This document shows positions 25 through 60,581 of a stretch of 64,000 nt of DNA, piece by piece (position 1 is the first letter of the stretch; each line of letters opens with the position of its first letter). A program made the position numbers and the translations under genes. Under the pieces are notes generated by a model. The model was not told where the DNA came from and made no database searches. It worked only from the letters and a program-made list of their open reading frames with translations. The DNA comes from Ferruginibacter sp. (lineage in GTDB: Bacteria; Bacteroidota; Bacteroidia; Chitinophagales; Chitinophagaceae): NCBI GenBank assembly GCA_040006715.1, contig JBDTWL010000011.1, forward strand, positions 3,728 to 67,727, read 5' to 3'.

Positions 25-627
25 ATGAACATGAAAAAATTAATTGAAGGAAGCATATTATTCGTATCCGGCCTGTTGATAATAGCAGGATGTAACGACA
101 ACAGCAGCAGTTCAACAACCGTTACCGACACTTCTACACTCGTCAAATTAGAAGACAGTGCCAAAATGGGTACACAAAAAATAAATACAGGTGAGGTCGC
201 TGCTATGCAAAATGATTTTGTGAATAAAGCAGCTATGGGTGGAATGATGGAAGTTGAGTTGGGCAGGTATGCACAGGCGAATGCAGGGAGCCAGGGCGTA
301 AAGGATTATGGCAAAATGCTTGAAACCGATCACTCAGAAGCCAACCAGCAATTAAAGTCTATTGCAGCTTCAAAGAATATTTCCGTACCAACCGATATGG
401 GCGAAGAACATAATATGCATGTTAAACAAATGGAAAGCATGAAGGGAGCTGATTTCGATAAAGCTTATATCACTATGATGGTGGAAGATCATGTTAAGGA
501 TATCGAGGAATTTAAAAAAGCCGCCGCTGAAAACAGCGATCCGGATGTCAGGAAATTTGCCGCTGATAAATTACCTACACTTCAGGGTCATCTTGCAAAA
601 GCAAAATTGTTGAAATCTAAATTCTGA
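25..627 (+). CDS. DUF4142 domain lipoprotein (ferritin-like fold)
   Basis: Lipobox-like LIIAGC; AAMGGMMEVELG, DHSEAN and FDKAYITMMVEDH motifs typical of DUF4142. Confidence 0.85.
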   Translation: MNMKKLIEGSILFVSGLLIIAGCNDNSSSSTTVTDTSTLVKLEDSAKMGTQKINTGEVAAMQNDFVNKAAMGGMMEVELGRYAQANAGSQGVKDYGKMLETDHSEANQQLKSIAASKNISVPTDMGEEHNMHVKQMESMKGADFDKAYITMMVEDHVKDIEEFKKAAAENSDPDVRKFAADKLPTLQGHLAKAKLLKSKF

Positions 628-42397: not shown

Positions 42398-43078
42398 ATG
42401 TACAACGAACTAAAATATGTTTACCTGAAAAGCCATCCACTTTTCGCAAACATGTCTGAAAAACAAGTTAATGATGCTTGTGAGCTGATGAAAGTAAAAA
42501 CCGTGTACCGTGGGGAGACATTTGATTATGGTGACGGGGATTATAGCAAAATATATCTTTTAATAAAAGGTAAGATCAAGATCACGCTTTGTGATGATAT
42601 GGACAATGAGTTGATCAAAGATATCCTTACAGCCCCGGATATTTTCGGTGACCTGAGCCTTGATGGCCGTCCATCAAGCGATGAATTTGCACAGGCATTG
42701 ATGGCAAATACAGTTGTATGTTTTTTCAATGCAACCGATTTCAAGAATATCCTCCAGGATAATGTTATGCTTGCCATGAATTATGCAAATACAGTGAATA
42801 ACAAACTCAAGAAACTGGAAAGCAGGCATTCAGACCTGGTATTCCATGATGCAAAGGCAAGGCTGATCCGTTTTATCAAGAACTGGGCAAAAACAGATGG
42901 CAACCGTATCGGCGATAAAATAATCCTGAACAATTATTTAACCCATAGTGATATAGCAGGTGTTATAGCTACTTCACGGCAGAGTGTGAATGTATTGTTC
43001 AATGAACTCCGTGATGCCGGTATGCTGATGTATGACAGGAAGAGGATACAGCTGAATGATATGATCGCTTGGAATTGA
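42398..43078 (+). CDS. Crp/Fnr family transcriptional regulator
   Basis: cNMP-binding-like barrel (IYLLIKGKIKI, DIFGDLSL) and HTH LTHSDIAGVIATSRQSV. Confidence 0.95.
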   Translation: MYNELKYVYLKSHPLFANMSEKQVNDACELMKVKTVYRGETFDYGDGDYSKIYLLIKGKIKITLCDDMDNELIKDILTAPDIFGDLSLDGRPSSDEFAQALMANTVVCFFNATDFKNILQDNVMLAMNYANTVNNKLKKLESRHSDLVFHDAKARLIRFIKNWAKTDGNRIGDKIILNNYLTHSDIAGVIATSRQSVNVLFNELRDAGMLMYDRKRIQLNDMIAWN

Positions 43079-43168: not shown

Positions 43169-43184
43169 TGTCCACCGCACGACA
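43169..43184 (+). promoter_or_regulatory. Crp/Fnr-type box upstream of the SDR-GH63-debranching genes
   Basis: TGTCC-ACCGCA-CGACA; TACTTTTA ends at 43213, 29 nt downstream. Confidence 0.7.
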
Positions 43185-43236: not shown

Positions 43237-44043
43237 ATGCAACAAAAATTACAGGACCAGGTGGCTATTGTAACAGGTGCCAGCAGTGGCATTGGAGCCG
43301 GATGCGCCATGGAACTTGCCAGGGCAGGGGCAAAAGTGATCGTGAACTACCCCATTCCCCAGGGAAAAGAAATGGCAGAGAAAGTGGTGGAACAAATTGT
43401 GGCTGATGGCGGCAGGGCCATATCATACAAATGCGATGTGAGTAAAGAAGATGAGGTAAAACAAATGTTTGCAGACACGATCAAAGAATTTGGTACTGTT
43501 GATATCCTTGTTAACAATGCAGGGCTTCAAAAAGATGCTCCATTCACCGAAATGACATTGGATCAATGGAATTTTGTTTTAGCTGTAAATTTAACAGGGC
43601 AATTTCTTTGTGCAAGGGAAGCCATTAAAGAATTTTTACGCCGTGGAGTAAATGGCAAATCAAAAAGTGCCGGCAAGATCATTTGTATGAGCAGTGTGCA
43701 TGAAGTTATTCCATGGGCTGGACATGCAAACTATGCTGCAAGCAAAGGCGGCGTTATGCTGATGATGAAAACGATCGCACAGGAATTTGCGCCAAAGATG
43801 ATCCGCATTAACAGCATTGCCCCCGGTGCTATTGCAACTCCCATCAATCATGATGCATGGGATACACAGGCCCACCTGCAGGAATTATTAAAACTGATAC
43901 CGCAAAAAAGAGTCGGGCAGGTTGATGATATTGGTAAAGCAGCGGTTTGGTTGGCAAGTGATGACAGTGATTACGTAAATGGAACTACCTTGTTTGTTGA
44001 TGGGGGAATGACCTTGTACCCGGGATTTGAAGACAATGGATAA
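43237..44043 (+). CDS. SDR oxidoreductase, glucose 1-dehydrogenase-like
   Basis: TGASSGIG, NNAG, SSVHEVIPW, YAASKGG and GTTLFVDGGMTLYP motifs. Confidence 0.88.
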   Translation: MQQKLQDQVAIVTGASSGIGAGCAMELARAGAKVIVNYPIPQGKEMAEKVVEQIVADGGRAISYKCDVSKEDEVKQMFADTIKEFGTVDILVNNAGLQKDAPFTEMTLDQWNFVLAVNLTGQFLCAREAIKEFLRRGVNGKSKSAGKIICMSSVHEVIPWAGHANYAASKGGVMLMMKTIAQEFAPKMIRINSIAPGAIATPINHDAWDTQAHLQELLKLIPQKRVGQVDDIGKAAVWLASDDSDYVNGTTLFVDGGMTLYPGFEDNG

Positions 44044-44045
44044 AG

Positions 44046-44193
44046 GCCCATCTACCTCCCCGAAGCCCGCCCGGCTGAATGCCGTTCGGACGGGGGGAGA
44101 AAAAGGAGAAGATTGATGCGATCCTTTACAAGATATTAAATTTAATAATCCCATTTCACGTACCCTTCCCTTTGGGAAGGGGTTGGGGATGGG
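44046..44193. repeat. REP/MITE-like inverted pair with a nested palindromic insert
   Basis: GCCCATC..CCTCCCCGAAG[CCCGCCCGG...CCGTTCGGACGGG]GGGAG on the left; CCCTTCCCTTTGGGAAGGGTTGGGGATGGGC on the right. Confidence 0.7.
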
Positions 44194-44206
44194 CTAAAAT
44201 AAAAAC

Positions 44207-46870
44207 ATGAACGCCGAACAACAAAGATTGCAACAACCCGGTTGGAAAAAGTGGGGGCCTTATTTAAGTGAGCGTCAATGGGGCACTGTAAGGGAAGATT
44301 ATAGTGAGAATGGAAGCGCCTGGGATTCTTTCTCACATGATGATGCACGCAGCCGTGTATATCGCTGGGGCGAAGATGGCATTGCAGGCATCAGTGATGA
44401 CCAGCAACACATTTGTTTTGCACTCGCTTTGTGGAATGGAAAGGATCCTATTTTAAAAGAAAGGTTGTTCGGCTTAACGGGCAATGAAGGCAATCATGGT
44501 GAAGATGTAAAGGAATTGTATTACTATTTGGATAATACACCTACGCATTCATACATGAAGCATTTGTACAAATACCCGCATGCGGAATTCCCTTATGCAG
44601 ACCTGGTAAATACAAATAAGCATCGTTCAAAAACCGAAGGCGAATATGAATTGCTTGATACGGGTTTATTCAATGATGGAAAATATTTTGATATAACCAC
44701 TGAGTATTCAAAGAATGCTACAGAAGACATTTGTATCAGGATCACGATCAGTAACCGTGCGAATGAAGCCGCTTATATTGCCCTGCTGCCAACACTTTGG
44801 CTGCGCAACCTGTGGAGCTTTGGCCTGATGCATGAGAAACCAAAAATGTATATCAAAGAAATTGGAGAAACCCTCGGGGAAGTAATAGTAGATCATTACT
44901 GGGAAGGTAAATATCATTTTTATTTTGAAAAACCTACGCATACCCTGTTCACAGAAAATGAAACGAATACAGAACGCTTGTATGGGAAGCCGAATCCGTC
45001 ACCCTATGTAAAGGATGCTTTTCACACGGCAGTTCAGCAAAACCGTTTTGATTGGCTGGAAGAAAAAAAGGAAGGAACAAAGTTTGCACCGATGTATGAA
45101 TTCAATGTAGCAGCCAATTCAGCTGTTGTTGTAAAACTCAGGTTGAGCAAACATCATGTTGAAACCGGTCCTTTTGATGCTTCATTTGATAAAATATTTA
45201 CAGATCGCATCACTGAAACAGATGTGTTCTATAAAGAGATAACAACCGCAACAGGCCAGGACCAGGTAAATATCCAACGCCAGGCATTTGCCGGAATGTT
45301 GTGGAGCAAACAATATTACAATATCGATATTCCACGTTGGCTGAATGGTGATCCCGGTCAGCCTGCACCACCGGAAAGCCGGAAGAAAGGCCGAAACCAT
45401 CAATGGCATTCATTGAACAATGAAGACATTATTTCAATGCCCGACAAATGGGAATATCCGTGGTATGCCGCATGGGACCTGGCTTTTCATTGTGTGCCAC
45501 TTTCAATGGTAGATCCGCAGTTTGCAAAGGACCAGCTCATTTTATTCTTACGTGAATGGTATATGCATCCAAATGGGCAGTTGCCTGCATACGAATGGGC
45601 ATTCGGTGACGTGAACCCACCCGTACATGCCTGGAGTTGTATGCAGGTATATAAGATCGATAAGCATAAAACTGGTAAAAGCGATATTAACTTCCTGAAA
45701 AGAGTATTTCAAAAACTGCTGATCAATTTCACCTGGTGGGTGAATAGAAAAGATTCAAAAGGCAATAATGTTTTTGAAGGAGGTTTTCTTGGATTGGATA
45801 ATATTGGTGTATTTGACAGGAGCAGTGCAATACCTGGCGGCGGAATTTTAGAACAGGCTGATGGCACAAGCTGGATGGCCATGTATTCTTTGAATATGCT
45901 GGAAATGGCTTTGGAAATTTCCCAATATGATGACAGTTATGAAGACGTGACCACTAAATTCTTTGAGCACTTTGTTTATATAGCCGAATCATTAAACAAA
46001 ATGGGCTCTGATTGGACAGGCAGCTGGAATGATGAAGAAGGATTCTTTTATGATGTGCTCGAATTACCGGGTGCAAACTACATCCCGCTAAAAGTAAGGA
46101 GCCTCGTGGGTTTGACAACATTGTTCGCTGTATTCGTTTTGAAAAAAGACCTGTTGGATAAAGTTCCGGATTTTCACAACCGTTTAAAATGGTTCCAGAA
46201 ATACAGGGAAAAGAACAATCAATACCTGGTGATCGAAGAATTGAATGATCATGATGATATATTGTTATCACTTGTACCAAAAGCAAAGCTTGAAAAATTA
46301 CTGAAAGCATTGCTGGATGAAAATGAATTTTTATCAACAGGTGGCATACGTTCAATTTCAAAAATTCATGAACGTGGTTATTCGGTGAATATTGAAGGTC
46401 AGGAATTCGGATTGGAATATACTCCTGCTGAAGGAACAACTTCTTTATTTGGCGGTAACAGTAATTGGCGTGGGCCGATATGGATGCCGATGAACTATTT
46501 GATCGTACTGGCATTGCAGCAATATGGAGAATATTACAAGGATGAAGCGTTGATAGAATACCCAACCGGTTCAGGGAACAAGATGATGATAAACGAGATA
46601 GCAAATAAAATTGCAGAACGTTTGATATCAATCTTTGAAAAAGATAAAAACGATCAGCGTCCTGTAAATGGAACAGAAAGCATTTACCAGGAAAATGAAC
46701 ACTTTAAAGATCTAATTTTATTTTATGAATATTTTCATGGCGATAACTCAAGAGGAGTTGGAGCATCTCATCAAACAGGCTGGACTGGTGTTGTAGCAGA
46801 ACTGATAAACAGGGTCAATACTCCACAAACAGCAAAGAAGAAAAAAATCAGGGAAGAAATTATTATGTAA
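44207..46870 (+). CDS. GH63/MGH1-like glycoside hydrolase
   Basis: WGPYLSERQWGTVREDYS, MPDKWEYPWYAAWDLAFH, FLGLDN and GASHQTGWT motifs. Confidence 0.92.
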   Translation: MNAEQQRLQQPGWKKWGPYLSERQWGTVREDYSENGSAWDSFSHDDARSRVYRWGEDGIAGISDDQQHICFALALWNGKDPILKERLFGLTGNEGNHGEDVKELYYYLDNTPTHSYMKHLYKYPHAEFPYADLVNTNKHRSKTEGEYELLDTGLFNDGKYFDITTEYSKNATEDICIRITISNRANEAAYIALLPTLWLRNLWSFGLMHEKPKMYIKEIGETLGEVIVDHYWEGKYHFYFEKPTHTLFTENETNTERLYGKPNPSPYVKDAFHTAVQQNRFDWLEEKKEGTKFAPMYEFNVAANSAVVVKLRLSKHHVETGPFDASFDKIFTDRITETDVFYKEITTATGQDQVNIQRQAFAGMLWSKQYYNIDIPRWLNGDPGQPAPPESRKKGRNHQWHSLNNEDIISMPDKWEYPWYAAWDLAFHCVPLSMVDPQFAKDQLILFLREWYMHPNGQLPAYEWAFGDVNPPVHAWSCMQVYKIDKHKTGKSDINFLKRVFQKLLINFTWWVNRKDSKGNNVFEGGFLGLDNIGVFDRSSAIPGGGILEQADGTSWMAMYSLNMLEMALEISQYDDSYEDVTTKFFEHFVYIAESLNKMGSDWTGSWNDEEGFFYDVLELPGANYIPLKVRSLVGLTTLFAVFVLKKDLLDKVPDFHNRLKWFQKYREKNNQYLVIEELNDHDDILLSLVPKAKLEKLLKALLDENEFLSTGGIRSISKIHERGYSVNIEGQEFGLEYTPAEGTTSLFGGNSNWRGPIWMPMNYLIVLALQQYGEYYKDEALIEYPTGSGNKMMINEIANKIAERLISIFEKDKNDQRPVNGTESIYQENEHFKDLILFYEYFHGDNSRGVGASHQTGWTGVVAELINRVNTPQTAKKKKIREEIIM

Positions 46871-46967: not shown

Positions 46968-48965
46968 ATGCTAAAGAAAGACAAATCAGTTTTACAAAAC
47001 TTCAGCGAAGCCACTCAATTAGAATGGCTGGAGACAAATGGCCTCGGCGGCTGGAGCAGTTCATCCATTATTGGATGCAATACCAGGCGATATCATGGGT
47101 TGCTTGTAGCTGCAACCGTTCCTCCCGCAGAACGGATGAACCTTGTATCCAAACTTGATGAAACAATTGTTGTAAATGATCAAAGGTTTGAACTGGGAAC
47201 AAACAATTATGGAAATGCTATAAACCCGAACGGATACAATTACATCAGGTTATTTACGAAAGACCTTTTTCCGGAATGGATCTATGAAGTAGATGGCATC
47301 CAGTTAAAAAAGACCATTGCCATGGTTCATGGAGAAAATACAACACTGATCGTCTATGATGTTGTAAGGGCTTCGAAAACATTTTCGTTAGAACTATTAC
47401 CATTACTATCTGTAAAAGGTTATCATAGTTTGATGCATGCAAACAATGACATCGATCGTGAAGCCACATTTAACAATAATATTTTTAAAACAAAAACATA
47501 TGAAGGAACCCCGGATATATTCATCCAGGTTCCTGGTGCTGATTATAAAGCAAACCCCAACTGGTTTTATAATTTTAACTACAGCGTAGAACAATACCGT
47601 GGCCAGGATTTTATTGAAGACCTTTTCAACCACGGAACATTATCTGTACAGTTAAAGAAGGGAGATTCGATCGGTATCATTATATCAACTGAAGACCCTG
47701 CAGGTAAAGATGCACATGAGTTGCTGGCAAAAGAAAGTTTAAGAAGACAATTATTATTGAATGATCAACCCAATGATAAAACAGTTCAACAACTTGTGTT
47801 GGCTGCCGACCAGTTCATTGTAAAACGCGGTGAAGATCTTAAGACGGTCATCGCCGGTTATCACTGGTTCACTGATTGGGGAAGGGATACGATGATATCC
47901 TTGCCAGGATTGTGTTTGAGCACAGGTCGTTTTGAAGATGCGAAGAAGATACTTGCAGCATTTGCTGCATCCGTAAGCCAGGGTATGCTGCCAAACCGTT
48001 TCCAGGACAATGGTGAAGCCCCGGAATACAATAATGTGGATGGAACACTCTGGTATTTTATTTCCATACATAAATATTTACAGGCAACAAATGATAAAAA
48101 ATTTGTGCTGAATGAAATATTGCCTGTACTTAAAGATATCATTGACTGGCATCACAAGGGAACAAGATATCATATCCATGATGAAGCCGATGGTCTATTA
48201 TACTCAGGAGAAGAAGGCGTACAACTTACCTGGATGGATGCTAAGGTTGGTGATTGGGTTGTAACTCCAAGGTCAGGTAAGGCTGTAGAGATCCAGGCAC
48301 TTTGGTATAATGCTTTGTGTATCTATGGCGAATTACTTGAATTAAATAAAGAAAAAGCTGAAGCAACACATATCAATGAAAAGGCTGGATTGGTAAAAAG
48401 AAGTTTTTTGCAACAATTCTGGAATGCTGAGAACAATTGCCTGTATGATGTAATAGATGGGAACATGAAAGACGATAGTATTCGCCCAAACCAGTTGTTT
48501 GCTATTAGCCTCCCCTATCCTGTTATTGATGGCAAACAAGCAAAAGCCGTTTTAAAGATCGTAGAAGAAAAATTATACACGCCTGTAGGTTTAAAAAGTT
48601 TACCGGCTGATGATGGTCGGTATGTAGGTATTTATGGCGGCGACCAAATGCACCGGGATTCATCTTACCACCAGGGAACAGTGTGGAGCTGGTTACTGGG
48701 CGCTTATATTGATGCTGTGATGAAAGTTGAAGGCAAAAGATCGAAAGCAAAAAAGATAATCGATGCGTTTAAATACCACCTGGAAGAAGGTTGTATCGGG
48801 AGTGTTTCAGAAATATTTGATGCAGATGCGCCACATCATCCACGTGGTTGTATTGCACAGGCATGGGGCGTTGCGGAAGTATTGAGGGTAATAAAAGAAT
48901 ATGATTTGTCTTCTGAAAGAAATAAAATAAAAAAGATCAAAGCAGCGATGGCCGAGCCTGCATAA
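46968..48965 (+). CDS. Amylo-alpha-1,6-glucosidase (glycogen debranching enzyme family)
   Basis: EWLETNGLGG, RRYHGLL, IAGYHWFTDWGRDTMI, LTWMDAK, YHQGTVW and QAWGVAE motifs. Confidence 0.93.
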   Translation: MLKKDKSVLQNFSEATQLEWLETNGLGGWSSSSIIGCNTRRYHGLLVAATVPPAERMNLVSKLDETIVVNDQRFELGTNNYGNAINPNGYNYIRLFTKDLFPEWIYEVDGIQLKKTIAMVHGENTTLIVYDVVRASKTFSLELLPLLSVKGYHSLMHANNDIDREATFNNNIFKTKTYEGTPDIFIQVPGADYKANPNWFYNFNYSVEQYRGQDFIEDLFNHGTLSVQLKKGDSIGIIISTEDPAGKDAHELLAKESLRRQLLLNDQPNDKTVQQLVLAADQFIVKRGEDLKTVIAGYHWFTDWGRDTMISLPGLCLSTGRFEDAKKILAAFAASVSQGMLPNRFQDNGEAPEYNNVDGTLWYFISIHKYLQATNDKKFVLNEILPVLKDIIDWHHKGTRYHIHDEADGLLYSGEEGVQLTWMDAKVGDWVVTPRSGKAVEIQALWYNALCIYGELLELNKEKAEATHINEKAGLVKRSFLQQFWNAENNCLYDVIDGNMKDDSIRPNQLFAISLPYPVIDGKQAKAVLKIVEEKLYTPVGLKSLPADDGRYVGIYGGDQMHRDSSYHQGTVWSWLLGAYIDAVMKVEGKRSKAKKIIDAFKYHLEEGCIGSVSEIFDADAPHHPRGCIAQAWGVAEVLRVIKEYDLSSERNKIKKIKAAMAEPA

Positions 48966-51240: not shown

Positions 51241-51287
51241 AAAAAGATCTAGGATTTTACTTCTCTTTGTTTTTTAAAACCAGAAAC

Positions 51288-52880
51288 ATGGACAATCATT
51301 ACGATATCATTATCATCGGCACCGGAAGCGGTGGTGGTACCATCTCAAAAAAACTGGCTGATAGTGGCAAAAAGATCTTGATACTTGAAAGAGGCGGATT
51401 TATACCGAAAGAAAAGGAGAACTGGGACCCACATGAAGTGGTGACAATCGGACGTTACCGCCCAAAAGAAAACTGGTATGATAAAGATAATAAACCCTTT
51501 CTTCCTTATATACATTATAATGTTGGTGGTAACAGCAAAGTATATGGCGCTGCCTTATTCCGCTTCCGCGAAAAAGATTTTGAAGAAGTGAAACATTATG
51601 GAGGAACCTCCCCTGCATGGCCTTTTGGCTATGAAACATTGAAACCATACTATGATACCGCTGAAAAAATGTATCATGTGCATGGCAGGCGGGGCGTGGA
51701 TCCTACCGAGCCCCCAACAAATATTGAATATCCCCTTCCTCCCCTTCCTTATGAACCTTTGATAAAAGACCTGGACAACAAACTGAAGCAGATCGGCCTG
51801 GAACCATTCCCATTACCAATGGGTGTAAATCTTCCACAGGATACAAATAAAAATGCATCGCCGGTAATATTGGAAAATTTTGACGGATTCCCCGATCTCA
51901 CAGATTCAAAAGCAGATTCACAAACAGTTGGATTGAACAAAGCATTGTTGAATGACAATGTGAAAATGATCACGCATGCATATGTTGAAAAATTATTGAC
52001 AGATGACACAGGCAAAAAAGTTGTAGCTGTTGTTGTCATAGTTGAAGGAGAAGAAATTGTTTTTTCTGCGGAAACATTTATAGTAGCATGCGGCGCTGTT
52101 AACAGTGCAGCCCTGATGCTTCGAAGCGCAAATAAGATGCACCCAAATGGCTTGGCGAATTCATCGGACCAGGTCGGACGGAATTTAATGCTACACCACA
52201 ATGGATGCCTGGTGGCTTTCACAAAAAAGAAAAATGATTGTGTGTTCCAGAAAAGCCTGGGATTAGCAGATTTTTATTTTGGTGCAGATGACAGTGAACT
52301 ACCCCTGGGTGAGATACAATTAATGGGGCGCAATGATCCTGATACGATCCTGTGGCTTGCAGAAAAATTATATCCCGGCAAAACATATACAGAACTAAAA
52401 GAAATGACCATTGATTTCTGGCTGACCGCAGAAGACCTTCCCTCTCCCGGAAACCGTATTACCCTTCGTGAAGATGGTGCCATAAAAGTTGATTATATAA
52501 GAACAAATTATACTGCTTTTGAAAAGCTGAAAGAAAAATTAAAGCAGGTATTTGTAAAACTTGGGGAGATCGATGAAGATTACAAGGATGTTCAATGGAA
52601 TGGGTATGATCTTGATGTGAGCGGGATGAGCCATCAAAACGGAACACTGCGTTTTGGGGCTGATCCTGCAACATCCGTACTGGACCTGAATTGCAAGGCA
52701 CATGACCTCGACAACCTTTACGTAGTGGATGCAAGTTTCTTTCCAAGCTGTGGTGCTTTCAATCCAGCACTCACCATTGCGGCAAATGCATTGAGGGTTG
52801 GAGAACATATCCTGCAACTTGAAAGTGTGGTCACTAAAATAAACAATAAGGAGTTGAAAGTTGAAACGATAAGTAATTAA
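51288..52880 (+). CDS. GMC family FAD oxidoreductase (cytoplasmic)
   Basis: IIIGTGSGGG, NVGGNSKVYGAAL, HQNGTLRFG, NLYVVDASFFP and NPALTI motifs; ATG 51288. Confidence 0.92.
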   Translation: MDNHYDIIIIGTGSGGGTISKKLADSGKKILILERGGFIPKEKENWDPHEVVTIGRYRPKENWYDKDNKPFLPYIHYNVGGNSKVYGAALFRFREKDFEEVKHYGGTSPAWPFGYETLKPYYDTAEKMYHVHGRRGVDPTEPPTNIEYPLPPLPYEPLIKDLDNKLKQIGLEPFPLPMGVNLPQDTNKNASPVILENFDGFPDLTDSKADSQTVGLNKALLNDNVKMITHAYVEKLLTDDTGKKVVAVVVIVEGEEIVFSAETFIVACGAVNSAALMLRSANKMHPNGLANSSDQVGRNLMLHHNGCLVAFTKKKNDCVFQKSLGLADFYFGADDSELPLGEIQLMGRNDPDTILWLAEKLYPGKTYTELKEMTIDFWLTAEDLPSPGNRITLREDGAIKVDYIRTNYTAFEKLKEKLKQVFVKLGEIDEDYKDVQWNGYDLDVSGMSHQNGTLRFGADPATSVLDLNCKAHDLDNLYVVDASFFPSCGAFNPALTIAANALRVGEHILQLESVVTKINNKELKVETISN

Positions 52881-52973
52881 TAAAAAGGTAGTTTTCTCAT
52901 GTTCGGTTGATTTTGGCTTTTAGGTTAAAAGAAACGGCGATGGGATTTCCTGTCGCCTTTTTAAGATTTATTT

Positions 52974-53327
52974 ATGGAAGAAATAGCAAAAACAGTCACA
53001 ATAAATATCAGTCATGCACTGGAAGTGATCTCAGCATTGATAATCGGTGCTGCGCTGGTAAAACTTGTCTTCAATTATTTCAGTTCGCTGGGATCAAGGA
53101 TCAGTATTTCAGCAGAAGAATCAAGGGTAAGATTCGGCAGCGCCATTGCAGTAGCATTGGAAATATTGCTGGGAGCCGATGTATTGGCAACTGCGGTTGC
53201 ACCCAGTTGGGATGATATTGGCAAACTCGCTGCCATTGCTGTTTTACGAACTGCACTCAATTATTTTCTTGGAAAAGAACTGAAAGAGATCCATCATAAA
53301 GAAGCATTACCCCAGATCAGTAAATAA
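52974..53327 (+). CDS. DUF1622 membrane protein
   Basis: ALEILLGADVLATAVAPSWDDIGKLAAIAVLRTALNYFL motif. Confidence 0.92.
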   Translation: MEEIAKTVTINISHALEVISALIIGAALVKLVFNYFSSLGSRISISAEESRVRFGSAIAVALEILLGADVLATAVAPSWDDIGKLAAIAVLRTALNYFLGKELKEIHHKEALPQISK

Positions 53328-53335
53328 CATTCTAC

Positions 53336-53351
53336 TGTCAGGCCATTGACA
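53336..53351 (+). promoter_or_regulatory. Crp/Fnr-type box upstream of the aquaporin gene
   Basis: Perfect TGTCA-GGCCAT-TGACA; TCTCTTTG ends at 53380, 29 nt downstream; ATG at 53385. Confidence 0.82.
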
Positions 53352-53384
53352 ATCGGGATCTGTAAAAAGTTTTCTCTTTGTCTT

Positions 53385-54176
53385 ATGAAGCATTCTTTTC
53401 AACAGAACTGGAAATTATATTTAATGGAAGCCTTTGGACTTGCCATTTTTATGATATCAGCCTGTTTCTTTGGTGGAATACTCGAATCACGGTCTTCAAT
53501 TGTTCATCATGCAATTGAAAGTGGTTTTATAAGAAATATTATCATGGGAATAATGATGGGGTTAACAGCCTTATTCATTTTTTATTCACCCTGGACATCT
53601 CCATCAGGGTCACATATCAATCCAGCAGTAACATTATCATTACTTCGCATTGGAAAGATGAACAGGTTTGATGCTTTCTTCTATATCGTCTTTCAGTTCA
53701 TCGGTGGAACTATTGCCGTTTATATCATGCAATGGCTGATGGGTGATACGTTAACGAACCAGCCAGTGAATTCTGTTGTCACGATACCGGGCAAAACAGG
53801 CGTTGCCGCTGCGTTCATGATGGAATTCGCTATAGCATTCATTATGATGACAATGGTGCTGTTCACTTCTGCCAATGAACAACTTAAAAGATATACAAGG
53901 ATCATCGCAGGATGCCTGGTATGCCTTTACGTGATCGTTGCCGGCCCTGTGAGTGGCTTTGGTATGAACCCTGCAAGATCCTTTGCCAGTGCTCTTCCCA
54001 CTCATACGTGGACCGCATGCTGGATATATATGATCGTGCCTGTTATCGGAATGATGGCAGCCGTTGAATTCTTCCTTTTAATACAGAAGAAGAAAAAAAT
54101 AAATAAAAACAACATGGATGAATCCATGTATTCACCAAAAAAGAAAATACTGGAGTCATTTGAATTCGTACTCTGA
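53385..54176 (+). CDS. MIP/aquaporin family channel
   Basis: SGSHINPAVT and GFGMNPARS NPA boxes; six TM segments. Confidence 0.93.
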   Translation: MKHSFQQNWKLYLMEAFGLAIFMISACFFGGILESRSSIVHHAIESGFIRNIIMGIMMGLTALFIFYSPWTSPSGSHINPAVTLSLLRIGKMNRFDAFFYIVFQFIGGTIAVYIMQWLMGDTLTNQPVNSVVTIPGKTGVAAAFMMEFAIAFIMMTMVLFTSANEQLKRYTRIIAGCLVCLYVIVAGPVSGFGMNPARSFASALPTHTWTACWIYMIVPVIGMMAAVEFFLLIQKKKKINKNNMDESMYSPKKKILESFEFVL

Positions 54177-54193
54177 ATAATAACTTATCAATT

Positions 54194-55198
54194 ATGAAAA
54201 AAATATTCACTTTAGTATTGGTTACAATAGCCGCACTTCAGTCTTATGTTGTATTTGCGCAAAAGATAATTGCTATTGGCCCGGTTGCAATAACTGTTTC
54301 AGATATGGAACGCTCTCTGGACTTTTATACCAAGACACTACCATTCCAAAAAATATCGGATGAGGAAGTATATGGAGATGCTTATGAAAAACTGGAAGGG
54401 CTTTTTGGTATCAGGATGCGTATTGTTCATTTAAAACTGGGAGATGAAGAAATTGAATTGATCGATTATCTCACAACCGGTGGCCGAAGCATGCCGGAAG
54501 ATGCAAGATCGAACGATCTTATTTTCCAGCACATTGCCATAGTGGTAAGTGATATGAAGGCAGCTTATAAGCAATTACGTAAACATAATATCATTCACGT
54601 ATCAACAGCACCTCAAACACTGCCTGCAAGTATCCCGGAGGCATTTGGCGTAAAAGCATTTTATTTCCAGGACCCCGATAAACACAATCTTGAACTTATT
54701 TATTTTCCAAAAGGGAAGGGACAGGAAAAATGGCAGCATTCAAGTGGAAAAATATTCCTTGGAATAGATCACACAGCATTTGGCGTGAGTAATACAGAGA
54801 ACAGTTTGAAATTTTATCGTGATATACTTGGTATCGAAAGAAAAGGCGATAGCCACAATAAAGGAATAGAACAGGAACACCTGAACAACGTGGAAGGCGC
54901 CAGTCTTCATATCACTGGTTTAAGAACAATGATGGGGCCCGGACTTGAGTTTCTTCAATACATATTTCCCGGTGCAGGCAAAACTTATCCTGCAGATACA
55001 AGAGCGGATGATATCTGGCAATGGCAAACTACATTGATAACTGATAATGCTGAAGCCTTATACAACAAACTACAACACTCCATTTATAAGATCATCTCAA
55101 AAGGGCTTGTTGAATTGACAGGCAAGGATGGCAAAAAACTAAAAGCATTTATCATAAGAGATGAAGATGGTCATGCCATGCTGATCAGTGAAAGATGA
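54194..55198 (+). CDS. Exported VOC (glyoxalase/bleomycin-resistance) family protein
   Basis: Signal peptide; repeated beta-alpha-beta modules (IELIDY, QHIAIVV, FQDPDKHNLELI, IDHTAF, LEFLQY, RDEDGH). Confidence 0.88.
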   Translation: MKKIFTLVLVTIAALQSYVVFAQKIIAIGPVAITVSDMERSLDFYTKTLPFQKISDEEVYGDAYEKLEGLFGIRMRIVHLKLGDEEIELIDYLTTGGRSMPEDARSNDLIFQHIAIVVSDMKAAYKQLRKHNIIHVSTAPQTLPASIPEAFGVKAFYFQDPDKHNLELIYFPKGKGQEKWQHSSGKIFLGIDHTAFGVSNTENSLKFYRDILGIERKGDSHNKGIEQEHLNNVEGASLHITGLRTMMGPGLEFLQYIFPGAGKTYPADTRADDIWQWQTTLITDNAEALYNKLQHSIYKIISKGLVELTGKDGKKLKAFIIRDEDGHAMLISER

Positions 55199-55223
55199 TA
55201 ATACGAATAAAAGCCGCAAAAGA

Positions 55224-55442
55224 TCATTTTCCTGGATAGAAATAAAAAAGAAGATCTCCTTCAGCTATATTATTTTCATTTCCTTTAGCAAACACTGGTC
55301 CCGCCTCCCCTGTTTTATTCAGCAGTTCAATAGATCTGACCATGTTTTTCTGAGAGTCGTTATTTTGTGAACTAAGAAAGAATGTAAGGCATAAAGTTGC
55401 CCAGAATACAGGCCTTCTCCAGTCATACCTTAGGTGTATCAT
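55224..55442 (-). CDS. Candidate small protein (72 aa)
   Basis: N-terminal hydrophobic stretch; preceded by a box and TATGTTTA at regulon spacing; no recognisable family. Confidence 0.35.
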   Translation of the reverse strand: MIHLRYDWRRPVFWATLCLTFFLSSQNNDSQKNMVRSIELLNKTGEAGPVFAKGNENNIAEGDLLFYFYPGK

Positions 55443-55490
55443 GTCTTTATACTTTAGAATATAAACATACGATCATCGGTAAAAAATAAT

Positions 55491-55506
55491 TGTCAGCTGA
55501 CAGACC
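55491..55506 (-). promoter_or_regulatory. Degenerate Crp/Fnr-type box facing the 72-aa ORF
   Basis: Minus strand GGTCT-GTCAGC-TGACA; TATGTTTA ends at 55462, 29 nt away. Confidence 0.5.
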
Positions 55507-55561
55507 ATGATCAGCCTAAAAGAAGATTCCCTTTAAAACAGCCACAAAATTTATCGTTTTA

Positions 55562-55577
55562 AGTCATCTACATGACA
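55562..55577 (+). promoter_or_regulatory. Crp/Fnr-type box upstream of the S8 peptidase operon
   Basis: AGTCA-TCTACA-TGACA; TTGTTTTG ends at 55606, 29 nt downstream; ATG at 55611. Confidence 0.78.
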
Positions 55578-55610
55578 GCTTACAAACAGGCGATCATGTT
55601 GTTTTGCCTT

Positions 55611-57266
55611 ATGGAAAAGACCAAGACCATAATTTGTCCTTTATGCAATGATACAGTCGACAGGCTTTATTACCGCTTTCACATTGATAGCGAGAAAAAA
55701 GTACTGGATCGCATCCGGGCAAACAATCCTTCCTGGTCAAAAAATGATGGCGCTTGCAGCCGTTGTGTGGATTACTATCATACGGCTATCGTTATGGAGC
55801 AACGCATCTTACCTGAAATAGGTCCTCATTTTTCTATAAAAAGTGCTGATGATTTTGTGATCCTTCCAACCGGCCTGCGCCTGGATGCTGATCCGAGATA
55901 TACGGGCAAAGGTGTTAGCATTTGTTTCATTGATAGCGGATTTCATTTACACCCTGATCTTGAACTTTTAAATAAGAGGATCAAAAAGATCGTTGATATC
56001 AATAATCCAAAGAATACAAAAAAATATTTTGAAAAATCAAATCCCGAAAGCTGGCATGGAACTATGACGAGTGTTGTCTGTGCCGGTGATGGTTATTTCA
56101 GCAATGGATTGTATAAAGGGATCGCCAGCGATGCGGAACTGGTATTATTAAAAGTACAGGATGAGACTGGACATATTTCTTCAGAAAACATCTGCAAGGC
56201 ACTTGAATGGGTTTTGAAAAATCATAAAAAATATGATATCAGGATCGTGAACATGAGCGTGAGTGATGATGAGGCGATCTCTTACAAACAAAGTAAGGTT
56301 GACCAGCTAGCTGAACAATTGATCGAAAAAGGGATCGTAGTAGTTGCTGCGGTAGGCAATGATGAAAATGGTTCCATTAAACCTCCTGCCAATGCATTGC
56401 ATGTAATAGCGGTCGGTGGTGTGGATGATGAAAATAATTTTGATGATGGGCCAAAAAAATTATATCATTCTTCATTTGGAAGAACAGTGGATGGATTGAT
56501 GAAGCCTGAACTATTGGCGCATGCGATCTGGATCGCTGCCCCTATTTTACCTGGAACAAAAGAACAGTCAGAATCAGAAGCGTTGCACTGTCTTTTGAAT
56601 ACTGCTGATGATGAACTGGTGCCAGAATTGAATAAAAAATATTCACTGACCCAGCTTGAGCAATGGGTATTGGAACAACATGATACAAAGATCATTCGTG
56701 ATGCCATCATCAAAAGGATACAAACCTGCAAATACATTTCGCCTCATTACATGCATGTGGACGGTACTTCATTCGCTGCACCGATTGTTTGTTCTGTTAT
56801 TGCACAACTCCTGCAGGCTAATCCAGATCTATCGCCAGCTATGATAAGGGAAGTGCTTTTTTCTATGGCAAACCGCCTCGAGGGCCTTCCTGTTGAACGC
56901 CAGGGCTATGGGCTGGTACAACCCCGCAAGTCATTACTTAAAATTTTAAAAAGAGAGGTCATTATGAAACCGGTTATATCACCACATATCAATGCGAAGA
57001 AAAAAACAATTGAATTTTATATTCGGAATGATTGCGCACAACAAATATCTTTAGCAGGAAGTTTTAACCATTGGGCACAGGATGTGTTGTTAATGGAACC
57101 AGGTAAAAATGGTATGTGGAAGATCGAGATCCCGCTTTTGCCCATCGGTAAATACCAATATAAATTTTTCCTGGACGATAAAATGTGGATGGAAGACGTT
57201 GACAACCCTTACCGTGAACCAGACGGCCACAGTGGATTCAACAGTGTATTGTATATTGAACAATAA
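55611..57266 (+). CDS. S8 serine peptidase with N-terminal Cys/His module and C-terminal CBM48/AMPK-type glycogen-binding domain
   Basis: Triad FIDSG, SWHGT, DGTSFAAP; CPLC...CSRC; ISLAGSFNHW...GKYQYKFFLDDKMW.ED..NP; no signal peptide. Confidence 0.88.
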   Translation: MEKTKTIICPLCNDTVDRLYYRFHIDSEKKVLDRIRANNPSWSKNDGACSRCVDYYHTAIVMEQRILPEIGPHFSIKSADDFVILPTGLRLDADPRYTGKGVSICFIDSGFHLHPDLELLNKRIKKIVDINNPKNTKKYFEKSNPESWHGTMTSVVCAGDGYFSNGLYKGIASDAELVLLKVQDETGHISSENICKALEWVLKNHKKYDIRIVNMSVSDDEAISYKQSKVDQLAEQLIEKGIVVVAAVGNDENGSIKPPANALHVIAVGGVDDENNFDDGPKKLYHSSFGRTVDGLMKPELLAHAIWIAAPILPGTKEQSESEALHCLLNTADDELVPELNKKYSLTQLEQWVLEQHDTKIIRDAIIKRIQTCKYISPHYMHVDGTSFAAPIVCSVIAQLLQANPDLSPAMIREVLFSMANRLEGLPVERQGYGLVQPRKSLLKILKREVIMKPVISPHINAKKKTIEFYIRNDCAQQISLAGSFNHWAQDVLLMEPGKNGMWKIEIPLLPIGKYQYKFFLDDKMWMEDVDNPYREPDGHSGFNSVLYIEQ

Positions 57267-57271
57267 ATGAG

Positions 57272-57499
57272 ATGACTGAAACGATCATAAATATCATACT
57301 ACTAATAATGGCCATTTACCTGGCTGCAGGATTTATATTCAGCATAATATTTATAGCAAAAGGTTTACAGGTTTTGGATGAAGGTGCCCATGGAACCGGC
57401 ATCGGTTTTAAACTGATCATTGTTCCGGGTTGCATTGTTTTCTGGCCGGTACTTTTAAAGAAATGGATGAAGGCAGGAAGAAATAAACTTAGACAATAG
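57272..57499 (+). CDS. Small two-TM hypothetical membrane protein
   Basis: Two hydrophobic segments, FKLIIVPG...WP motif; 5 nt after the S8 stop. Confidence 0.75.
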   Translation: MTETIINIILLIMAIYLAAGFIFSIIFIAKGLQVLDEGAHGTGIGFKLIIVPGCIVFWPVLLKKWMKAGRNKLRQ

Positions 57500-57518
57500 G
57501 ATTTTTTTGTAAAATATC

Positions 57519-57959
57519 ATGGTAAAGCAATTAAGAAAAAGACATTTACAGGTATGGGCAGTATTGCTGTTGCTGATCCCCTGTGCCATCATTGCCGGGT
57601 GGCTTGTTATTCCAAATCAACAGCCCGGTAATCTTTTGCAGCCACAGGAATCAACTGCCTTACAAGTGATCTTAAAGTCTGTTCAAAAAGAAAATTACAT
57701 AGTAAACCTTCGCACAAACAATGACAGGTCTGCCAGCCAGTTAGAATGGATAAACAAGTCTGCTTTGACCAGCCCGTCGGCGCTTATCTATAAGTTGACA
57801 AATACTTCAACCAAAGATATCAGCAGCAATGACCTTATCGGTAGGATCGATGTAAAAGGAACATACCATTTCCCGTTGAAGAATGATTCAGCAGTCAACA
57901 ACAAATTTGTTTTGTACGATATCATTCACCAACAGGTAATTGATACAATAAATTTTTAA
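57519..57959 (+). CDS. Membrane-anchored hypothetical protein
   Basis: LRKRHLQVW followed by one TM segment and a beta-rich domain; operonic spacing. Confidence 0.75.
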   Translation: MVKQLRKRHLQVWAVLLLLIPCAIIAGWLVIPNQQPGNLLQPQESTALQVILKSVQKENYIVNLRTNNDRSASQLEWINKSALTSPSALIYKLTNTSTKDISSNDLIGRIDVKGTYHFPLKNDSAVNNKFVLYDIIHQQVIDTINF

Positions 57960-57961
57960 GC

Positions 57962-59002
57962 ATGAGTGCATCATACCAGGCTATTGGATGGAACAGGCAA
58001 AAAAAACGCTATGACTGGTTCATAGCTGGCTTCTGTGCATTATACCTCAGCATATTCATTGTCTTAACTGCCATCTTCAATTCCCAATATACTTTTGAAA
58101 CAGTACTGATACGATCAACATCAACCCTGGCTATATTGATATTGCATGTTATTCTCTGCATTGGGCCTTTGAGCAGGCTTAATAGCAAATTCCTGCCCTT
58201 ATTATACAATCGCCGCCATCTCGGTGTAACCATGTTCTTCCTTGCAGCGATACACGGAACTTTCAGCATCATTCATTTTCATGCATTGGGAGATGTGAAC
58301 CCGTTTGTATCATTGTTCACTTCCAATACCAATTATAATTCACTGCATGGATTTCCATTCCAGGCATTGGGCTTTTTTGCATTGATCATATTTTTTTTAA
58401 TGGCCATCACAAGTCATGATTTCTGGTTGCACAACCTGTCGCCAAAGGTTTGGAAAACACTGCACATGTTTGTGTACCTTGCTTATTTTCTCGTTATTAT
58501 GCATGTGATGCTTGGGGCCATTCAATATGAAAGCCACCCCGTCTTTGTAATAATGATAGCGATGGGAGCAATAACAGTCATAAGCCTTCATTTGATCACT
58601 GGGCTGAAAGAAGTAAAGAAAGACAATGCCAGGTTTGATCCTGCAAAAAATGGTTTTGTAAGTGTATGTGATATCAATGAGATCGAAGAAAGCCGTGCAA
58701 AGATATTTTGTATAGATAAAGAACGTATAGCAGTGTATCGTTTTGAGAACAGTCTGTATGCCATACACAATGTTTGTAAACACCAGGGCGGCCCTTTGGG
58801 TGAAGGAAAGATCATTGATGGCTGTATCACCTGTCCCTGGCATGGATACCAGTATTTACCAAATAATGGCCAATCCCCTCCTCCATTTAAAGAAAAGGTA
58901 AGCACGTATGATGTAATGGTTGAAGGAACAAAGGTTTGGCTAAACCCAAGCCCATTCCCGGAAGGAACAGAAAGGCCGGGCGCATTGATCAATAATAAAT
59001 AA
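57962..59002 (+). CDS. Ferric-reductase-like (MsrQ-type heme b) membrane protein fused to a Rieske [2Fe-2S] domain
   Basis: NRRHLG, IHG, WKTLH..VY..Y..VIMH; C-terminal CKH...CPWH. Confidence 0.9.
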   Translation: MSASYQAIGWNRQKKRYDWFIAGFCALYLSIFIVLTAIFNSQYTFETVLIRSTSTLAILILHVILCIGPLSRLNSKFLPLLYNRRHLGVTMFFLAAIHGTFSIIHFHALGDVNPFVSLFTSNTNYNSLHGFPFQALGFFALIIFFLMAITSHDFWLHNLSPKVWKTLHMFVYLAYFLVIMHVMLGAIQYESHPVFVIMIAMGAITVISLHLITGLKEVKKDNARFDPAKNGFVSVCDINEIEESRAKIFCIDKERIAVYRFENSLYAIHNVCKHQGGPLGEGKIIDGCITCPWHGYQYLPNNGQSPPPFKEKVSTYDVMVEGTKVWLNPSPFPEGTERPGALINNK

Positions 59003-59008
59003 ACAGGA

Positions 59009-59869
59009 ATGAATAATGAATTTTATATAGGATGGTTGCCAAAAGCACCTGGTGGTTTTGCAAAACACATTAAAAAAGTATTGCTGGCACTTTTACCTGT
59101 CATGATAATTGTTGGAATAACACTGGCATTACTGCAAAAGAAATTCGACACAGGGAATTTTGAATTCGGCAAACTAACAGAAGTAAAAGGAATATATTTT
59201 AATAAGCCCGTTCCAATGATCAAAGTGGTCAATGGTAAAGATATCTGGGGAAATATTTCTTACCTGGGTATTCCCCTCGTTGGATATGGCAAGCATGGAG
59301 CTGAAGGCATCATGATGGAGCTTGAAAAAGAAAAGAATATTTCTCTTACACAAAAAGAGATCACATTGAAAGGCACCCTTATCTACAATGATGGCAAGAC
59401 GATCATGCAGGTAAATGAAGATGATAACCCTCTAGTTCATGTGGCAGATTCAAAAGCAGCAAATGAATTATTACAACAACAAAAAGACCTGGGTGTTTCA
59501 AAGGTCAAAGGTGAGATCATCGACCCTAAATGTTATTTTGGAGTGATGAAACCCGGTGAGGGCAAGGTTCACAGGGATTGTGCCATCCGTTGTATACTGG
59601 GTGGTATTCCACCGATGATGAAGGTTAGAAATGAAAAAGGAGAAAACAATTATTACCTGGTCGTTGGGCCAAATGGAGAGAATATGAATAATGCTGTACA
59701 GGATTATGTAGGGGAACCGGTGGAAATAGAAGCAAACCTCGTACAATATGACGACTGGATCGTAATGTATGTGAAAAGTGATAAGTTGATCAGCCGTATC
59801 TCTACTCTTGCGCTGTTAAGGAATGAAACAGCTATCATATCCTGTACAATGGGGAACTGCAATAAATAA
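59009..59869 (+). CDS. Membrane-anchored hypothetical protein with a Cys/His motif
   Basis: One TM segment; GEIIDPKCYFGVMKPGEGKVHRDCAIRCILGGIPP. Confidence 0.78.
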   Translation: MNNEFYIGWLPKAPGGFAKHIKKVLLALLPVMIIVGITLALLQKKFDTGNFEFGKLTEVKGIYFNKPVPMIKVVNGKDIWGNISYLGIPLVGYGKHGAEGIMMELEKEKNISLTQKEITLKGTLIYNDGKTIMQVNEDDNPLVHVADSKAANELLQQQKDLGVSKVKGEIIDPKCYFGVMKPGEGKVHRDCAIRCILGGIPPMMKVRNEKGENNYYLVVGPNGENMNNAVQDYVGEPVEIEANLVQYDDWIVMYVKSDKLISRISTLALLRNETAIISCTMGNCNK

Positions 59870-59870
59870 T

Positions 59871-60581
59871 TTATTGACCGTTGTTGTACATTTCTATACT
59901 TTTCATCCTTCTTATGATCGTCTCGGGATTCATATACCTTTCTTTTTCCATCATCTTATTAATATTATCAGCTCCAACCCAGTTTTTATGCTTCAATGCC
60001 TTGCGCACATTGATACTCCAGGCCAATAATTGATATCCAAGTCCATGAGCAATGCAGATACTATCTGTACCGTATTCAAATTTGTCTAAAAATTTTGAAG
60101 AAAGATTTCCGAAACCTACCCTCAAAATGCCTGGCATATTTTTATTGTTAAAATCAACAACATGGCTTATCTCATGCCCTATCACTCCAACCTGTGCATC
60201 AAAGTCAAGCGACCTGAAAAGAATGGGAGATAATTGCTTGATGGTCTTATCACTGATAGTGATCACATATTTCCTGCTGCGCTTATCCAGGAATATACTT
60301 GTCCATGCCGGTCTCGAAGACAAGGGAGTGAGCACATGTTTTATACGGAATTCAATTTTTATGTTGGCCAGTTCGGGGAAGAAACAAAGCGCCAGGAGAA
60401 TGGGCTTTTCGTATTCCGTTGGAATTATCTTATTACTAGCAACCTTGGCCCTGATCAATGAATATACTTCCTCATTCAGGTCAGTTTGGGCAAAAGATCT
60501 CACCGGCACTTGTCCTGAGCAAAAGGAAGAAACAAGTACGAAAAGAAACAGTATGGTACTTTTTATTTTTTTTCTGATCAT
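59871..60581 (-). CDS. Exported hypothetical protein, putative zincin-like metalloprotease
   Basis: Signal peptide, GVIGHEISH (HExxH) and downstream E (FEYGTD); overlaps the CoaB stop by 4 nt. Confidence 0.6.
   Translation of the reverse strand: MIRKKIKSTILFLFVLVSSFCSGQVPVRSFAQTDLNEEVYSLIRAKVASNKIIPTEYEKPILLALCFFPELANIKIEFRIKHVLTPLSSRPAWTSIFLDKRSRKYVITISDKTIKQLSPILFRSLDFDAQVGVIGHEISHVVDFNNKNMPGILRVGFGNLSSKFLDKFEYGTDSICIAHGLGYQLLAWSINVRKALKHKNWVGADNINKMMEKERYMNPETIIRRMKSIEMYNNGQ

Follow-up and report, generated by a model that had tools for sequence, protein, structure and literature searches.

The gene considered here codes for a subtilisin-type serine protease and lies in a 64,000-nucleotide (nt) stretch of Ferruginibacter sp. 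DNA (contig JBDTWL010000011.1, positions 3,728 to 67,727), referred to below as the window. Its product joins an N-terminal module with four cysteines (Cys4 module), a catalytic domain of peptidase family S8 and a C-terminal carbohydrate-binding module (CBM) of the CBM48 or AMPK-beta type. The gene is preceded by a Crp/Fnr-type dyad and by a group of genes, hereafter the glucan island, which includes those of a GH63-like alpha-glucosidase and of an archaeal-type glycogen debranching enzyme (GDE). Its immediate upstream neighbour is a VOC gene, at a distance of 412 nt, and four membrane-protein genes follow it (Table 1). Databases merely name the protein "S8 family serine peptidase" or, automatically (JGI), "AprX."

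The longest open reading frame (ORF) around the protease runs from 55572 to 57266 on the forward strand and codes for 564 residues. The ATG at 55611, where an earlier note on this DNA had also placed the start, is nevertheless the likely initiation codon, because homologues are typically of about 550 residues (mostly 549–555), because the 13-residue extension is not conserved (in the nearest homologue, P0002, 82% identical, it is alike only in Met-Thr and otherwise unrelated), and because the upstream in-frame ATG (55572) falls within the TGACA half-site (CATGACA) of the promoter dyad. The presence of an ATG in this half-site also explains the 13-residue "MT..." extension that gene callers gave to P0002. 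Residues are numbered below from the Met at 55611.

Table 1. The protease gene, its parts and its surroundings (positions in the window)
Feature	Position	Strand	Basis or remark
Protease gene, 551 aa (Zn module / S8 / CBM48)	55611..57266	+	Pfam, homologue lengths, alignment; model with mean pLDDT 91.6, pTM 0.84
Cys4 module, residues 1–65	55611..55805	+	alignment, isolated fold model
Linker, residues 66–80	55806..55850	+	low confidence, pLDDT <50
S8 catalytic domain, residues 81–447	55851..56951	+	Pfam, phmmer, alignment, structural comparison
Catalytic D108	55932–55934	+	
Catalytic H149	56055–56057	+	
Catalytic N250	56358–56360	+	
Catalytic S387	56769–56771	+	
Helical insertion in S8 domain, residues ~317–373			
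CBM48 / AMPK-beta-type module, residues 454–551, with W488, K518, W526, N544	56970..57263	+	Pfam, HMMER, structural comparison
Crp/Fnr-type dyad AGTCATCTACATGACA	55562..55577	+	one mismatch to TGTCA-N6-TGACA
-7-type promoter element TTGTTTTG	55599..55606	+	ends exactly 29 nt after the dyad; ATG 5 nt further on
Crp/Fnr-family regulator	42398..43078	+	candidate reader of the box
SDR, glucose-1-dehydrogenase-like	43237–44043	+	model 238 bits, cut-off 215; cytoplasmic (predicted)
GH63-like alpha-glucosidase	44207–46870	+	cytoplasmic (predicted) island partner
Archaeal-type GDE	46968–48965	+	model 521 bits, cut-off 364; cytoplasmic (predicted)
Further island genes: GMC oxidoreductase, DUF1622, MIP channel, exported VOC protein	51267..55198	+	
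Four co-oriented membrane-protein genes (75 aa, 146 aa, MsrQ-like/Rieske 346 aa, 286 aa)	57272..59869	+	

Domain architecture and cell location

The catalytic part matches the Pfam model Peptidase_S8 (PF00082) over its entire profile (positions 1–288 of 288; residues 99–434, E 3e-39, 135.4 bits for a cut-off of 21.8), and its Asp, His and Ser follow one another, together with the oxyanion Asn, as in peptidase family S8. D108, H149, N250 and S387 are indeed conserved in 53–54 of 54 aligned relatives. They are also invariant, along with C9, C12, W42, C49, C52, W488, Y517 and K518, in 17 full-length representatives sharing 34–63% identity. In the AlphaFold2 model, built from 54 sequences, only the linker falls below a pLDDT of 50, and an exhaustive structural comparison of this model recovered the subtilisin alpha/beta fold, with subtilases at Z 22–39.5, many of them at Z 28–36. 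The top matches were Tk-SP (9ues, Z 39.5, rmsd 2.4 over 303 residues, 32% identity) and CspB (4i0w, Z 35.4). No clear counterpart was identified of the short inhibitory LIPY/F extension by which the intracellular subtilases ISP are defined. The linker carries a motif, RILPEIGP, in close relatives only, not family-wide, and ISP structures were absent from the PDB sequence and structural matches listed.

A cytoplasmic location is supported by the predicted N-terminus, which has no hydrophobic stretch (maximum 12-residue hydropathy of 0.71, versus 2.2–3.2 in exported neighbours). The SDR, the GH63-like enzyme, the debranching enzyme and the GMC oxidoreductase likewise have no N-terminal hydrophobic stretch; the VOC, SGL and YHS proteins carry clear signal peptides. 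Two kinds of fused relatives fit a cytoplasmic enzyme: P0134 (867 aa) adds a PfkB sugar kinase in front of the zinc module, S8 domain and CBM48, and P0135, P0148, P0154 and P0227 (about 920–1010 aa) join S8 and CBM48 to an MBL-fold domain, with weak Lactamase_B matches. Among the long cluster representatives scanned, at least four show the latter fusion; the scan did not extend to five others of similar length.

Known subtilase subfamilies did not account for the protein. Its NCBIfam scores were 89 bits for mycosin (cut-off 279), 53 for CspBA (1250), 43 for CspC (675) and 18.4 for IteS (900), and PatA was below threshold too, which places it outside the mycosin, Csp, PatA and IteS subfamilies. 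An anti-phage defence subtilase of the IetS/IteS type was considered in view of weak PADLOC and NCBIfam matches to models for IetS/IteS and for a generic defence "subtilase," and was rejected as hardly credible: these sub-cut-off scores reflect the common S8 core only, the PADLOC match to IetS being partial, and the four downstream genes, where a partner ATPase was sought, gave no PADLOC match, while the upstream neighbour is the VOC gene and the context is metabolic.

Sequence, predicted structure and sugar-contact residues all mark the C-terminal module as CBM48-like. It passes the Pfam cut-offs of both AMPK1_CBM (PF16561, 32.3 bits for 26.8) and CBM_48 (PF02922, 26.4 bits for 22.4), and its closest solved sequence matches include AMPK beta1 and beta2 (E 3e-6 to 2e-5) as well as SEX4 (E 2e-4). 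A structure-prediction test of this likeness had been set beforehand as one able to refute it; residues 454–551 of the model matched CBM48 modules at Z 12–14 over 90–101 residues, and the reading stands. The matches were a feruloyl esterase (8bbp, Z 14.1), a Rhodothermus alpha-amylase (8xxa, Z 13.4), a Pyrococcus amylase (4aef, Z 12.9), the E. coli branching enzyme (1m7x, Z 12.3), a pullulanase and another branching enzyme; among the CBM48 structures, 7p43 scored Z 11.9. In AMPK beta1, the sugar is contacted by W100, K126, W133 and N150 (PMC4032982). The equivalent residues here, counted over the alignment of 54 relatives, are W488 (conserved in 49 of 49), K518 (46 of 49), W526 (47 of 50) and N544 (43 of 50); the first three were mapped by HMMER alignment to AMPK beta2 chains, and the fourth is our own reading of a GFNS motif against the VNN of beta1. 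The intact catalytic triad, the missing signal peptide and the AMPK-beta-like C-terminus, all claimed in the earlier note, were thus borne out.

These data bear on a more ordinary explanation, in which the protein would be a general intracellular housekeeping protease whose C-terminal beta-sandwich merely stabilises it and binds no sugar, as in the beta-jelly-roll of Tk-SP or the P-domain of kexin. Tk-SP, the top match in both structure and sequence, does bear a non-lectin C-terminal beta domain, and relatives carry the JGI label "AprX." We nevertheless consider this explanation improbable, as the four sugar-contact residues are 86–100% conserved across relatives of 32–83% identity, the domain matches CBM48 structures and passes the Pfam cut-offs, and island genes are found only beside CBM48-bearing forms.

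Modules of the same type were also seen outside this family. The genome codes for an exported 490-residue protein with a clear signal peptide and four tandem AMPK1_CBM repeats (contig C12, locus L109:988–2460, reverse strand), in which no catalytic domain was recognised, and a representative from elsewhere, P0155 (1812 aa), has 18 such repeats.

At the other end of the protein, the module described in the earlier note as zinc-finger-like (CPLC...H...CSRC..YH) was upheld in its cysteines and not in its histidines: C9 and C12 (CPLC) and C49 and C52 (CSRC) are among the invariant residues, as is W42, whereas H24 and H57 are unconserved in the 54 relatives. Folded alone, the N-terminal 80 residues gave a pLDDT of 79.8. 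In this model, CPLC sits on a beta-hairpin (strands 7–8 and 15–16), a helix spans residues 28–38 and CSRC lies at the start of a helix (50–66), so that the four cysteines are predicted to be arranged as in a structural treble-clef zinc site. The nearest folds were ZAD domains, with six entries among the top 26 structural matches, spanning the whole 70-residue module; their values (Z 4.9, 4.0, 4.0, 3.9, 3.4 and 3.0; Foldseek E 0.64) are too weak for claiming kinship. Searches with the module gave no match among PDB sequences and no usable one in the ESM Atlas, and a search for stand-alone homologues returned only fragments at contig ends. The module is accessory and not essential, since many family members do without it.

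Promoter and conserved gene neighbourhood

In Bacteroidota, the -7 consensus is TAnnTTTG. Given the position of this element ahead of the protease gene, transcription would start within a few bases of the ATG, leaving a very short leader or none, and the messenger is probably leaderless or nearly so. Dyads of the form TGTCA-N6-TGACA, with at most one mismatch, occur nine times in the window for 2.3 expected, and the composite site, made of a dyad and of exactly 29 nt behind it that end in TTTG or TTCG, was counted seven times for 0.43 in shuffled sequences. All seven composite sites lie within 34–62 kb, ahead of operon heads, one of them being that of the protease gene (55562–55606). A like dyad and spacing precede the orthologue in L002, L003 (with TTCG), L018, L020 and L026, and the same 29-nt distance between dyad and -7 element was found in six loci; the composite geometry is also present ahead of GMC, MIP and YHS operon heads in L018 and L020. 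Ahead of the SDR, GH63-like and GDE genes of L022, L026 and L035, which lie within longer operons, no composite site was found, and a scan of 55100–60100 for Sigma-70 promoters and terminators gave no more sites than shuffled sequence.

According to the earlier note, the protease gene shares its regulatory box with the debranching and GH63 genes. This box is solid at the protease gene (AGTCATCTACATGACA, 29 nt, TTTG) and only tentative for the GH63/debranching operon: the site ahead of the SDR, GH63-like and GDE genes, at 43169 (TGTCCACCGCACGACA), is degenerate (TGTCC...CGACA), with a -7 element ending in TTTA. Conservation of this weak site was sought in L019, where the region is rearranged and cannot be aligned. 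The functional link with the GH63-like and debranching genes that the box was taken to indicate does hold, on account of operon membership conserved across phyla, which is a stronger argument for it than the shared box.

Gene context was established by calling ORFs in 97 fetched loci and clustering them by BLASTP, key genes being rechecked by tblastn. As the simple ORF caller missed the protease in some high-GC loci (e.g., L048), counts of context rely on tblastn and not on called ORFs. The neighbours present in the window recur next to the protease, on the same strand and with operon-like gaps. In Chitinophagales, L035 reads GMC-YHS-YHS-SGL-VOC-S8-SDR-GH63-GDE-MIP-SDR, the genes as far as the GH63-like one being separated by -38 to 80 nt; the GH63-like gene is itself called as two pieces 153 nt apart. 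Similar arrangements were found in Haliscomenobacter (L026, Crp-S8-x-GMC-YHS-SDR-GH63-GDE-MIP), in Saprospiraceae (L022, S8-GMC-VOC-YHS-YHS-SGL-SDR-GH63), in Gemmatimonadota (L046, GDE..GMC-VOC-YHS-SGL-GluDH-S8), Calditrichia (L025, GH63-S8), Chloroflexota (L044, GH63..GMC-S8) and Acidobacteriota (L048, S8-MIP-GMC-VOC-GH63; L031, S8-MIP-x-YHS-SGL..VOC), and in an unclassified bacterium (L071, VOC-GH63-NDH2-S8). The GH63-like proteins at these loci are 51–77% identical to that of the window over the full 870 residues. The protease gene is thus a member of operons with glucan-hydrolysing and glucose-oxidising genes, and with those of an aquaporin, a GMC oxidoreductase and proteins of the VOC and lactonase-like kinds, in at least five phyla (Bacteroidota, Acidobacteriota, Gemmatimonadota, Chloroflexota and Calditrichia). 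The order of the membrane-protein genes behind it is the same in L002, L003, L018, L019 and L020, and these four genes likely form an operon with the protease in Chitinophagaceae only.

In the genomes of the window's family that have it, 56 of 101, the GH63-like gene itself is present in one to four paralogues. Of the four orthologues closest to the window's copy (76% identity), three belong to genomes that also carry the protease, and the two genes are 1–17 kb apart in G045, G069 and G004. Another possible role is that of a dedicated maturation protease acting on a co-encoded protein, for example the GH63-like enzyme, with its long unassigned N-terminal half, or GDE, the CBM48 serving only to bring both onto the same particle. 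The protease gene indeed adjoins the GH63-like gene in five phyla, and structural relatives include processing subtilases (CspB, site-1 protease, lanthipeptide proteases). We regard this as doubtful, since many genomes that lack the protease have the GH63-like gene, which therefore does not need it, and a shallow look at the partners identified no propeptide-like segment.

The protease family is patchy: of the genomes sampled from the window's own family, 5 of 101 carry it, and of those from Bacteroidota, 20 of 401. It is nevertheless wide, occurring in Chitinophagales, Saprospiraceae, Calditrichia, Anaerolineae, Acidobacteriota, Gemmatimonadota, Planctomycetota, Vulcanimicrobiota and others, and about 300 clusters (50% identity) match at E up to 1e-30. 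Its four architectures (zinc module, S8 and CBM48; S8 and CBM48; zinc module and S8, mainly in Acidobacteriota; S8 core alone) show that the zinc module and CBM48 are separable accessories on one catalytic core. A second recurrent setting comprises genes for an esterase, a 380-residue protein of unknown function, a circularly permuted ATP-grasp, a GCS2 ligase, a second ATP-grasp and sometimes a Ser/Thr kinase; its loci (L029, L034, L036, L039, L040, L094, L021, L084, L089, L092 and L096) come from Anaerolineae, with several from Myxococcota and one from Saprospiraceae. Acidobacterial forms with the zinc module and without CBM48 (L047, L053, L055, L056, L060, L062–L066, L069–L074, L078 and L081–L083) lie in conserved settings, either beside a divergent patatin-like gene and a convergent gene for a TonB_C protein, or downstream of a molybdopterin oxidoreductase (MsrP-like) pair. 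In view of these non-glucan settings, the core job of the family is not tied to glucan, and the CBM48-bearing forms are those that are.

Some other elements of the surroundings deserve mention. A decayed second copy of the protease gene lies elsewhere in the same genome (G000, contig C56:10266–10733, reverse strand; locus L006:1514–1948 and 2425–2501). What survives is the last third of the gene (72% protein identity to residues 390–550, with one internal TAA), together with 77 nt of the spacer upstream; about 480 bp stand in place of some 1.35 kb of the gene as found in the window. The spacer between the VOC and protease genes contains a 72-codon ORF on the reverse strand (55224–55442), and its part 55366–55442 has 77% DNA identity to a stretch beside the decayed copy, a likeness which suggests that the spacer holds a conserved element or a small gene. 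Between the SDR and GH63-like genes, the 163-nt spacer (44044–44206) contains a hairpin rich in GC (ccccgaagcccgcccgg...ccgttcggacgggggg) and a run rich in G, gggaaggggttggggatggg, which is unusual in a genome of 40% GC; it could be an attenuator or another RNA element inside the operon.

A protease on glycogen particles?

From these results, we propose that the protein is a protease tethered to glycogen, which acts on proteins bound to the particle and is co-produced with enzymes hydrolysing glucan, a reading to which we give a probability of about 0.5 and in which we infer the binding to glycogen, the nature of the substrates and the function of the zinc module. The enzyme would be an active cytoplasmic protease held on glycogen (alpha-glucan) particles by its C-terminal CBM48. 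It would be produced along with the debranching enzyme and the GH63-like glucosidase, which would turn stored alpha-glucan into glucose, then oxidised by the glucose 1-dehydrogenase and the lactonase-like protein; in this genome, the island set would be switched on via the Crp-type box. Judged from family assignments, the cytoplasmic arm would lead from alpha-glucan to glucose and then, with the lactonase-like SGL protein, to gluconolactone, and genes for a glycogen synthase-like protein and a branching enzyme are present on another contig of the genome. The protease would most likely cut proteins sitting on the particle, such as synthesis enzymes and other bound proteins, particle-bound synthesis enzymes being a reasonable guess by analogy with laforin and malin in animals. 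Such cleavage would allow the reserve to be mobilised or the particle proteome to be reset. The Cys4 module would bind zinc and may act as an accessory interaction or dimerisation domain. The further suggestions of the earlier note, that the enzyme remodels or activates granule proteins and might be gated by its Cys module, gained no support from these results and stand as mere possibilities.

The association between the binding module and this context speaks for the proposal: by tblastn of the fetched flanks, at least one island gene lies beside 20 of 43 CBM48-bearing relatives and beside none of 52 CBM48-less ones, a comparison which overstates independence, as the loci are mutually related, and which amounts to no formal test. 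This limit weighs against our reading, and four further points do so as well. Island genes were not seen in the fetched flanks of the other 23 of the 43 CBM48-bearing relatives. The glucan island is not the sole setting of the family, as Anaerolineae relatives adjoin esterase, ATP-grasp and GCS2 genes. The GH63-like gene is far commoner in the window's family than the protease (56 versus 5 of 101 genomes), which makes the protease an optional add-on to an island that works without it. Finally, the GH63-like enzyme could act on an alpha-glucoside solute instead of glycogen.

The same module could also serve to sense the reserve. CBM48 would then read glycogen status as in AMPK beta, the protease being held or inhibited on glycogen and freed or activated upon depletion, for the protein breakdown of a starving cell. 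In favour of this possibility, the module scores higher as AMPK-beta type than as isoamylase type (32.3 versus 26.4 bits), AMPK beta1 and beta2 are among its closest solved matches, and co-expression with reserve-mobilising enzymes would fit a depletion signal. It is nevertheless unlikely in our opinion, as the sequence gives no sign of allostery, the pTM of 0.84 suggests a fixed arrangement of the domains in the model, and operon membership is equally compatible with simple co-localisation. A wider view, which we offer as speculation with little weight, would make the protein a one-chain bacterial counterpart of eukaryotic reserve sensing: its AMPK-beta-type module would read glycogen, perhaps with a redox or zinc input from the Cys4 module, coupling remodelling of the proteome or of the particle proteome to the carbon reserve, and it would travel between phyla in a mobile glycogen-to-gluconate operon.

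Comparison with known systems

No paper on this protease family or on the glucan island was found in the literature. New here are the operon membership across phyla, the link between CBM48 and gene context, the promoter, the zinc-module layout and the structural confirmation of CBM48.

The closest solved catalytic domain is that of Tk-SP from Thermococcus kodakarensis (PDB 3afg and 9ues; phmmer E ~1e-27), which also has a C-terminal beta domain after S8. Tk-SP is secreted, with an N-terminal propeptide and a Ca-binding beta-jelly-roll, whereas the window protein has neither a signal peptide nor an I9-type propeptide and carries the Cys4 module and CBM48. Absence of a signal peptide is shared with the intracellular subtilases ISP and AprX of Bacillus, the latter being the automatic JGI (KEGG) label of relatives; to our knowledge, no CBM or zinc module is known in either. 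As for the Cys4 module, its C4 site resembles in layout that of the ZAD (zinc-finger-associated domain) of insect transcription factors (PDB 7poh, 7pok, 1pzw and 7po9): the first two Cys sit on a hairpin, and the other two open a long helix. Z is, however, only 3.0–4.9 and Foldseek E 0.64, the sequences are not similar, and the ZAD serves for dimerisation in eukaryotes.

Regulated proteolysis at a storage particle is known in eukaryotes, where laforin brings in the ligase malin and the latter tags proteins bound to glycogen for degradation; we know of no description of it at the storage-polysaccharide particles of bacterial glycogen. By analogy, laforin–malin and SEX4 (CBM20/CBM48) are alike in that a carbohydrate-binding module brings a protein- or polymer-modifying activity to the storage particle. 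They are, however, phosphatases or a ubiquitin ligase complex, whereas the protease itself bears the module here, and homology is confined to the CBM. The protease may thus offer a handle on which proteins live on bacterial glycogen particles and on how they are turned over. Lastly, the glycogen-binding domain of AMPK beta (PDB 1z0m/1z0n, 2f15 and 4y0g) belongs to the same module family, with the contacts conserved, and is likewise attached to a cytoplasmic enzyme that is not a glycosidase. In AMPK, the module sits on the scaffold subunit of a kinase that senses reserves, whereas here it is in one chain with a bacterial protease. The family also constitutes a clean test case for an AMPK-beta-type module acting as a tether or as a sensor outside eukaryotes.

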